In this document: piece by piece, positions 55,330 through 56,227 of the stretch
Layout of the letters: each line of letters starts with the position of its first letter
Numbering within the stretch: the first letter of the stretch is position 1
Assembly: GCF_022846255.1 (NCBI RefSeq)
Contig: NZ_AP025682.1
Source: Escherichia coli
Lineage (GTDB): Bacteria; Pseudomonadota; Gammaproteobacteria; Enterobacterales; Enterobacteriaceae
Strand: one strand, 5' to 3'
DNA length: 64,000 nt
Notes under the pieces: model-generated
What the model was told of the DNA's origin: nothing
Databases searched by the model: none
The model's input: the letters and a program-made list of their open reading frames with translations, nothing else
Translations under genes and position numbers: made by a program

Positions 55330-55359
55330 ATGACATTAGCGTTACATGTGCTGTATAAT
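55330..55359 (+). promoter_or_regulatory. candidate sigma70 promoter of the toxin-antitoxin operon
   Basis: -35 ATGACA, 18-bp spacer, -10 TATAAT (55354-55359); the 8-bp palindrome ATAATTAT overlaps the -10 and could be an operator; AAGGA RBS before the ATG at 55391. Confidence 0.5.
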
Positions 55360-55390
55360 TATCATCCATGCAAAGCCGAAGGATATATTT

Positions 55391-55684
55391 ATGCCAGCAG
55401 CCAATAACATTCCAACCAGGCGCGAATCTTTAAATTTGCGCATAAAACCCGCAGAACGCGATCTTATTGACCGGGCCGCTAAAGCCCGAGGAAAAAATCG
55501 CACCGAATTTGTCCTTGAGGCCGCCAGAGCCGCTGCTGAAGAGGCGCTCATTGAGCAGAGAATTTTCAGGATCGATTCTGATGATTACCAGCTATTTTTG
55601 AATCGTCTGGATCAGCCCCCCGCGCCCAATGCTGCATTACGCAAAACCATGCAAACACCCGCGCCGTGGGAGCAAAAAAAATGA
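55391..55684 (+). CDS. type II antitoxin, DUF1778 / ribbon-helix-helix family (TacA/AtaR-like)
   Basis: 97 aa from the ATG at 55391; pattern [39 protein letters not shown] resembles DUF1778 antitoxins; stop overlaps the downstream ATG (ATGA). Confidence 0.8.
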
Positions 55685-56175
55685 TTCAGGCCCCCGAGCC
55701 ACTCATGGCAAGGCATCAATTCACCTCTTTTTGCTCGGGAGTAGAAACGATGGATAACTGGCTAAAGCAGAGGGCCCTAAAAAATCAGCTTGCCGGCGCA
55801 TCACGTACATTTGTTAGCTGTGATACGTATAGCAACGTTTTGGCATATTATTCGCTTGCTTCCAGCGCCGTTGAAACGTATGTCGCGACAGGACGATTTC
55901 GCCGAAATATGCCAGAACCGATCCCTGTTGTAGTACTTGGTCGTCTGGCAATAGATAAATCATTACAGGGTCAGGGCATCGGTCGTGCGATGGTCAGAGA
56001 TGCCGGTCTACGAGTACTACAGGCGGCTGAAGTCATTGGTATTCGCGGAATGTTGGTCCATGCGTTATCAGACCAGGCCCGAGAGTTTTATCTGCGAGTG
56101 GGGTTTGAACCATCGCCTGTCGATTCTATGATACTGATGGCAACATTGGCTGATTTGCAGGAATGTCTTAAATAG
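55681..56175 (+). CDS. GNAT-family acetyltransferase toxin (TacT/AtaT/ItaT-like)
   Basis: 164 aa from the ATG at 55681; GNAT acetyl-CoA motif [23 protein letters not shown]; strong resemblance to the TacT and AtaT sequences as I recall them. Confidence 0.8.
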
Positions 56176-56203
56176 TTCGTTATGTCTCATGCAAAATAAA
56201 TAT

Positions 56204-56227
56204 CCTCCGGCATAGCCGGAGGTTTTT
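56204..56227 (+). terminator. hairpin plus T-tract: TA-operon terminator and/or IS200 right-end subterminal hairpin
   Basis: cctccggc-ata-gccggagg followed by ttttt, 29 bp after the toxin stop; the assignment is ambiguous. Confidence 0.5.

Follow-up and report, generated by a model that had tools for sequence, protein, structure and literature searches.

The TacA2–TacT2 pair of Salmonella is the closest described relative of the locus reported here. Toxicity, neutralisation by TacA2 and acetylation of aminoacyl-tRNAs (aa-tRNAs) have been demonstrated for Salmonella TacT2(SEn), and acetylation of the α-amine of aa-tRNAs has been shown for TacT, TacT2 and TacT3 alike (PMC5959882). The substitutions Y137F and R88G abolish the toxicity of TacT2, a natural S. 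Typhimurium allele with E29 instead of K29 is attenuated and barely toxic, and in vitro TacT2 acetylates several aa-tRNAs (PMC5959882).

TacA–TacT of Salmonella (TacAT1; PDB 5FVJ, 7AK8, 7F36/7F37) belongs to the same family and has the same fold, and its toxin possesses the equivalent lysine (K31), the arginine and the catalytic tyrosine (Y140) (PMC5959882). According to the summary of Grabe et al. in PMC9431474, TacA antitoxins neutralise their cognate toxins only. AtaRT of E. coli O157:H7, KacAT of K. pneumoniae and TacAT3 of Salmonella (PDB 6G96) likewise consist of a GNAT toxin and a DUF1778/ribbon-helix-helix (RHH) antitoxin and act by aa-tRNA acetylation; the promoters of KacAT and AtaRT contain a pseudo-palindromic operator, to which a heterohexamer of A4T2 composition binds (PMC6698736). 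AtaR2–AtaT2 (ECs4261–ECs4262) is a further GNAT/RHH pair of E. coli O157:H7, and AtaT2 is specific for Gly-tRNAGly both in vivo and in vitro (PMC7470980; PMC9177977). In vivo acetylation has been measured for 14 members of the family: the clade D toxins TacT, TacT2, TacT3, AtaT2, GmvT and two others modify Gly-tRNAGly near-exclusively, and AtaT and KacT fall into the broad-specificity clade A (Bikmetov et al. 2022, PMC9177977).

The locus described here lies between rne and flgL in a 64,000-nucleotide stretch of an Escherichia coli contig (NZ_AP025682.1), referred to below as the window, and very probably represents a chromosomal type II GNAT/RHH (TacAT) toxin–antitoxin (TA) operon of TacAT2-like type. 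No publication dealing with this E. coli pair came up in literature searches by RefSeq accession and by keyword. It is an uncharacterised member of a well-studied family, and its antitoxin already carries a TacA family label in public databases, where at least 1,000 contigs encode the exact sequence under the name 'type II toxin-antitoxin system TacA family antitoxin'.

Organisation of the locus

The two genes are intact and co-oriented and are preceded by a conserved promoter (Table 1). The original prediction had called both open reading frames on the same strand and joined them by an ATGA stop/start, and their coordinates and the overlap at 55681–55684 are confirmed. The bicistronic antitoxin-first order with overlapping genes, by which TacAT-type systems are recognised, is thus present at 55391–56175. 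The antitoxin start codon (ATG, 55391) has the Shine-Dalgarno sequence AAGGA 7 nt ahead of it and the toxin start codon (ATG, 55681) has GGGAG 8 nt ahead. A layout of 97 aa, a 4-bp overlap and 161–164 aa is common to seven homologous loci in other genera. Longer reading frames of 112 aa (from 55346) and 169 aa (from a GTG at 55666) were considered and rejected, as the homologues elsewhere are all 97 and 161–164 aa long. In the interval first proposed for the module, 55330–56227, the last ~35 bases (56193–56227) are foreign to the operon and form the terminus of an IS200C element that has inserted there.

Table 1 Features of the TacAT2-like locus and its surroundings (window coordinates)
Feature	Position	Strand	Basis or remark
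rne intrinsic terminator, hairpin and T-run	55277-55305	+	terminator scan; left limit of module
TacAT2-like module, ~880 bp	55311-56190	+	BLAST of K-12, SCU-111 and window
Candidate operator GTAATGACATTAGCGTTAC, imperfect inverted repeat GTAATG-N7-CGTTAC over the -35 element	55327-55345	+	conservation
Sigma-70-like promoter, -35 ATGACA, 18-nt spacer, -10 TATAAT	55330-55359	+	11/12 consensus positions
Antitoxin gene (TacA2-like, 97 aa + stop)	55391-55684	+	ORF, Pfam, PDB match
Toxin gene (TacT2-like GNAT acetyltransferase, 164 aa + stop)	55681-56175	+	ORF, Pfam, PDB match
IS200C with nested IS4, outside the TA module	56193-58347	-	starts ~18-25 bp past the toxin stop
IS200C subterminal hairpin CCTCCGGCATAGCCGGAGG + TTTTT	56204-56227	+	terminator scan; hairpin proper 56204-56222
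IS200C tnpA	56304-56762	-	
IS4 transposase, nested near the tnpA-upstream end of IS200C	56903-58249	-	

The antitoxin and toxin proteins

The upstream protein had been read as a DUF1778-type antitoxin, and it does match the Pfam family TacA1/DUF1778 (PF08681, E=1.5e-26) over residues 14–88. In line with the architecture of that family it comprises an N-terminal RHH part and a C-terminal toxin-binding region, and the β-strand LNLRI, which is predicted to read the DNA, is invariant in the homologue alignment. In a search of all PDB chains the antitoxin is matched best, and over its full length, by 7AK7 chain C (E=1.2e-45, 156.8 bits), whereas the second-best chain reaches 61 bits. TacA-type chains as a whole match with E values from 1.2e-45 to 1e-4, and the TacA of TacAT1 is a weak match at E~1e-15. 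Identity to Salmonella TacA2 amounts to 81%.

The downstream protein matches the GNAT domains Acetyltransf_7/10/1 of Pfam (E=7e-9 to 7e-6). The GNAT acetyl-CoA loop noticed in the original prediction is present within the loop region of residues 88–104, as QGQGIG at residues 96–101 with G97 and G99 invariant. When the toxin is aligned with TacT2, TacT and homologues from five further genera, K29 and R88 are unchanged throughout, and every native sequence has Y137. These three residues align with K29, R88 and Y137 of TacT2 and, for the lysine and tyrosine, with K31 and Y140 of TacT. The best match among all PDB chains is 7AK7 chain A (E=7.7e-76, 256.7 bits over 162 aligned residues).

A literature search on 7AK7 returned nothing relevant, and the identity of this structure was read from its sequence. 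Chain A differs from a cluster of 763 Salmonella enterica members (P0062) only at M33I and Y137F (engineered), the cluster is 48% identical to TacT where the published TacT2–TacT identity is 46.8% (PMC5959882), and the TacT2 residue numbers K29, R88 and Y137 fit chain A exactly. By these comparisons 7AK7 is assigned to Salmonella TacA2/TacT2. An assignment to TacAT3 was rejected, TacT3 being 6G96 (PMC5959882) and only a distant match to the window toxin.

By bit score the characterised relatives of the toxin rank as TacT2 (257), TacT (154–155; E=1e-44), KacT (76; E=4e-20), AtaT (65; E~1e-16) and TacT3 (61; E=2e-15), and no ItaT-like chain was among its PDB matches. The likeness to TacT and AtaT that had been proposed earlier therefore holds for the family, but the nearest relative is TacT2, followed at some distance by TacT, and AtaT is remote; KacAT and TacAT3 have the composition of the window pair and the mode of action predicted for it, yet are similarly distant in sequence. 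Global identity to TacT2 is 74%, rising to about 78% over the local PDB alignment, so that roughly a quarter of the toxin residues differ, mostly at the N- and C-terminal ends. TacT is far more diverged (50% identity over 152 aa). AtaT2 was rejected as an identity for the toxin because it is a different sequence at a different locus, although AtaR2–AtaT2 is also a GNAT/RHH pair with a clade D toxin.

Salmonella TacA2–TacT2 has the same gene order, protein sizes (97 and 163–164 aa) and 4-bp overlap as the window pair and shares with it K29, R88, Y137, the acetyl-CoA loop, the promoter core and the operator-like motif. The Salmonella genes adjoin PAP2/dsbD/cutA/dcuA, whereas the Escherichia pair occupies the rne–flgL gap. 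Given this difference in chromosomal site the pair is not a positional orthologue of tacAT2, and it is therefore named TacAT2-like.

Both window proteins are identical in amino acid sequence to those of E. coli SCU-111. Compared by the Nei–Gojobori method with Escherichia sp. E4385, dN/dS is 0.11 for the antitoxin and 0.12 for the toxin, and for the toxin it is 0.05 in comparison with Salmonella, from which it follows that both genes are maintained by selection. The functional residues are kept and the genes are under purifying selection.

Sequence databases also hold aberrant forms of the pair. Antitoxin–toxin fusions of 260 aa (P0001 and P0004) occur in Logan assemblies on one contig each, and deletion of 2 bp near CCGTGGGA, shortly ahead of the overlap (~55660–55684), would account for them; they may be either real mutations or assembly errors. 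An N-terminally shortened toxin call of 141 aa has 189 member sequences.

Taken together with the matches of both proteins to TacA/TacT complexes in the PDB (E=1e-45 and 8e-76), the Pfam results uphold the earlier claim of a type II TA pair of the TacT/AtaT kind, with the function itself predicted from family membership. It is extremely unlikely that the locus instead encodes a housekeeping or small-molecule/protein acetyltransferase beside a CopG-type transcription factor. Such a reading could draw on the RefSeq name of the exact toxin sequence, which is merely 'GNAT family N-acetyltransferase' (at least 1,000 contigs), and on the NCBIfam scan, which gave no model match, hence no equivalog and no curated model naming either protein; a PADLOC scan gave no match either. 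The toxin is, however, 74–78% identical to a demonstrated toxin with the same functional residues (PMC5959882), its partner is a diagnostic DUF1778 protein encoded with a 4-bp overlap, and the accessory, patchy and context-independent distribution described below is typical of TA cassettes.

The predicted tRNA target

The window toxin nests inside clade D, all seven in-vivo-tested members of which are directed at Gly-tRNAGly (PMC9177977). Gly-tRNAGly is accordingly the parsimonious predicted target: TacT and TacT2 are only 48% identical and yet have the same target, and between the window toxin and TacT2 the identity is 74%. Because TacT2 acetylated several aa-tRNAs in vitro, this call is to be taken as one drawn from homology. 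The original statement that tRNA specificity could not be read from the sequence was nonetheless too pessimistic, as clade membership makes it partly readable.

That the locus is a genuine TacAT module whose target is other than, or broader than, Gly-tRNAGly is considered unlikely. The 26% divergence of the toxin from TacT2 would leave room for such a shift, TacT2 itself is not confined to one aa-tRNA in vitro (PMC5959882), and the AtaT and ItaT clades are broad or directed at Ile, Leu and Val (PMC9177977). Against this, TacT and TacT2 are both Gly-specific in vivo despite their divergence, as are clade D members that are much more distant (PMC9177977), and the window toxin is nearer to TacT2 than TacT is. 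Gly-tRNAGly is thus retained as the predicted substrate.

Promoter and candidate operator

The -35/-10 pair that had been proposed upstream of the antitoxin gene agrees with the consensus at 11 of 12 positions. Promoter-like matches are not above chance in this region (2 found, 1.8 expected), but despite this chance-level count the promoter at 55330–55359 is kept across eight diverged loci. The alignment behind this result spans the 96 bp that precede the antitoxin start codon in the window, Escherichia sp., Salmonella, Leclercia, Pectobacterium, Klebsiella, Citrobacter and Sodalis. Over these eight loci from seven genera the -35 element is invariant and the -10 element keeps TATnnT.

The same alignment shows that GTAATGACATnnGCGTTAC (55327–55345), with 17 specified positions, is invariant in all eight loci. 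TG-TGTAT of the -10 region and a downstream TCCA are invariant too, and the DNA upstream of GTAATGACATnnGCGTTAC is unalignable. The inverted repeat GTAATG-N7-CGTTAC within this block occurs as a single copy in the window, where 0.01 matches are expected by chance. By analogy with the operators of KacAT and AtaRT, it may be the operator bound by the TacA-type antitoxin; it is put forward as a candidate on the strength of its conservation.

A different element, the palindrome ATAATTAT over the -10 box, had been pointed out in the original prediction. It does exist, at 55355–55362, where it forms the tail of the -10 box, but it was rejected as an operator. An 8-mer of this type is expected 0.78 times per window and is found at least once in 54 of 100 shuffles, which places it at chance level, and it is unconserved in the homologous promoters (the Salmonella promoter has TATACTTAAT).

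Distribution and insertion site

At a threshold of at least 80% of its length the module is present in 685 of 5,426 complete E. coli genomes (~13%), and the K-12-type empty site is found in 4,735, so that carriers and empty sites together account for 5,420 of the 5,426. According to the original prediction no TA pair is known between rne and flgL in K-12, and K-12 indeed has the empty site. For E. coli SCU-111 and an Escherichia sp. without species assignment the annotated context was inspected, and in both the pair lies between rne and flgL; for the remaining carriers, the complementary counts of 685 and 4,735 lead us to infer the same position. The module is a presence/absence polymorphism in E. 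coli, occupying one chromosomal site in a minority of strains; one further Escherichia lineage carries it at that site as well.

K-12 and the TA+ strains are colinear up to ~55310, where the K-12 alignment with the window ends, and just past the rne terminator ~880 bp replace ~63 bp of K-12. The 63-bp empty site of K-12 (L002 1567–1629) shares ATCTTTG with the left edge of the module and ATGCAAAA with the right edge; these strings could be a deletion scar or a target site. Beyond these strings, the 63-bp stretch and the module gave no BLAST match to each other. At the level of the wider region, window positions 39001–64000 are matched best among the complete E. coli genomes at 98.9% identity, in 4 pieces covering 94%. 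Along with the number of IS elements, this points to Shigella or to an E. coli lineage of which few genomes have been sequenced.

The homologous pairs of Salmonella, Leclercia, Pectobacterium, Klebsiella, Citrobacter and Sodalis stand next to unrelated genes, among them integrase, transposase and ParA genes. The module thus behaves as a mobile cassette equipped with a promoter and a candidate operator. Comparison of the window with Escherichia sp. E4385 (L005 4711–5492) gives dS values of 0.16–0.20 for the TA genes, 0.34 for rne and 0.57 for flgL. The lower values in the TA genes, which represent only 10 and 21 synonymous differences, hint that the module was exchanged more recently than its flanks.

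It may be asked whether a module of such limited occurrence is still active. An attenuated or domesticated module, weakly toxic or non-toxic and either serving another role or not yet decayed, is judged quite unlikely. K29E alone nearly abolishes the toxicity of TacT2 in vivo (PMC5959882), so a close homologue can be attenuated by one change and other such changes are possible in the window toxin; moreover, the module is missing from 87% of complete E. coli genomes, and truncated 141-aa and fused 260-aa variants are on record. These points are set against the intact K29, R88, Y137 and acetyl-CoA loop, dN/dS values of ~0.1 for both genes, and the occurrence of the identical protein on 1,000 contigs or more. 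Conservation is equally tight in the antitoxin and in the operator-like DNA, as would be expected if the toxin still needs neutralising. A toxin that retains its activity is therefore the favoured reading.

The IS200C::IS4 insertion and the downstream side

In this genome the downstream side of the module is interrupted by an IS200C element that in turn carries an IS4 (Table 1). Fifty complete E. coli genomes contain the IS200C::IS4 composite as one unit at other loci, a finding that suggests joint movement or inheritance of the two elements, but at the rne–flgL junction it is present in none of the 5,426 complete genomes of this species. The hairpin at 56204–56222 resembles an operon terminator and was rejected as the native one because it is IS200C sequence, multi-copy and missing in SCU-111: the stretch 56204–56227 is matched at as many as 36 sites in a single E. 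coli genome, and SCU-111, a TA+ strain free of the insertion, lacks it. In the genome studied here this hairpin probably terminates the TacAT2-like transcript.

The sRNA FlgO, which is encoded in the flgL 3'UTR (78 nt in the K-12 annotation), is located at ~58341–58418 on the minus strand of the window. The IS insertion abuts the FlgO terminator, and the T/U tail is reduced from 7 to 5 in the window (GGGCATTTTTGTGCAC versus GGGCATTTTTTTGCC). Where TA+ strains lack the IS, the toxin gene is convergent with the FlgO terminator at a distance of ~25 bp, and no + strand T-run is found past that terminator, so that TA transcripts might read antisense into FlgO/flgL.

It is very doubtful that the Escherichia module now functions differently from Salmonella TacAT2, be it through a shifted aa-tRNA target or through modulation of flagella via FlgO. 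The second variant, which would concern ~13% of E. coli, is prompted by the convergence of the transcript on the flgL 3'UTR that encodes FlgO.

Proposed mechanism and implications

By analogy with its family, for which the acetylation mechanism is established, the window toxin would transfer an acetyl group from acetyl-CoA to the α-amine of the glycyl moiety of Gly-tRNAGly. The acetylated tRNA would be useless for elongation, ribosomes would stall at Gly codons and growth would stop. The C-terminal region of the antitoxin would bind to the toxin and cover its active site, and its N-terminal RHH dimer, alone or in a complex of the A4T2 type, would bind to GTAATG-N7-CGTTAC and repress the operon. 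Loss of the labile antitoxin would free the toxin, and hydrolysis of the acetylated tRNA by peptidyl-tRNA hydrolase (Pth) would render the damage reversible.

Structures, targets and regulation of GNAT/RHH systems are already well described, and the conceptual gain from a further member is small. What is gained is an annotation, as a TacAT2-like module with a predicted Gly-tRNAGly acetyltransferase toxin, for a pair carried by ~13% of E. coli. With its fixed site the module can also be used as a clean presence/absence marker. The sharply defined candidate operator is useful for the study of specificity or cross-talk among TacA2-type antitoxins, and as GTAATGACATnnGCGTTAC is invariant across seven genera, it is conceivable, although judged very doubtful, that such antitoxins from different replicons cross-repress one another.
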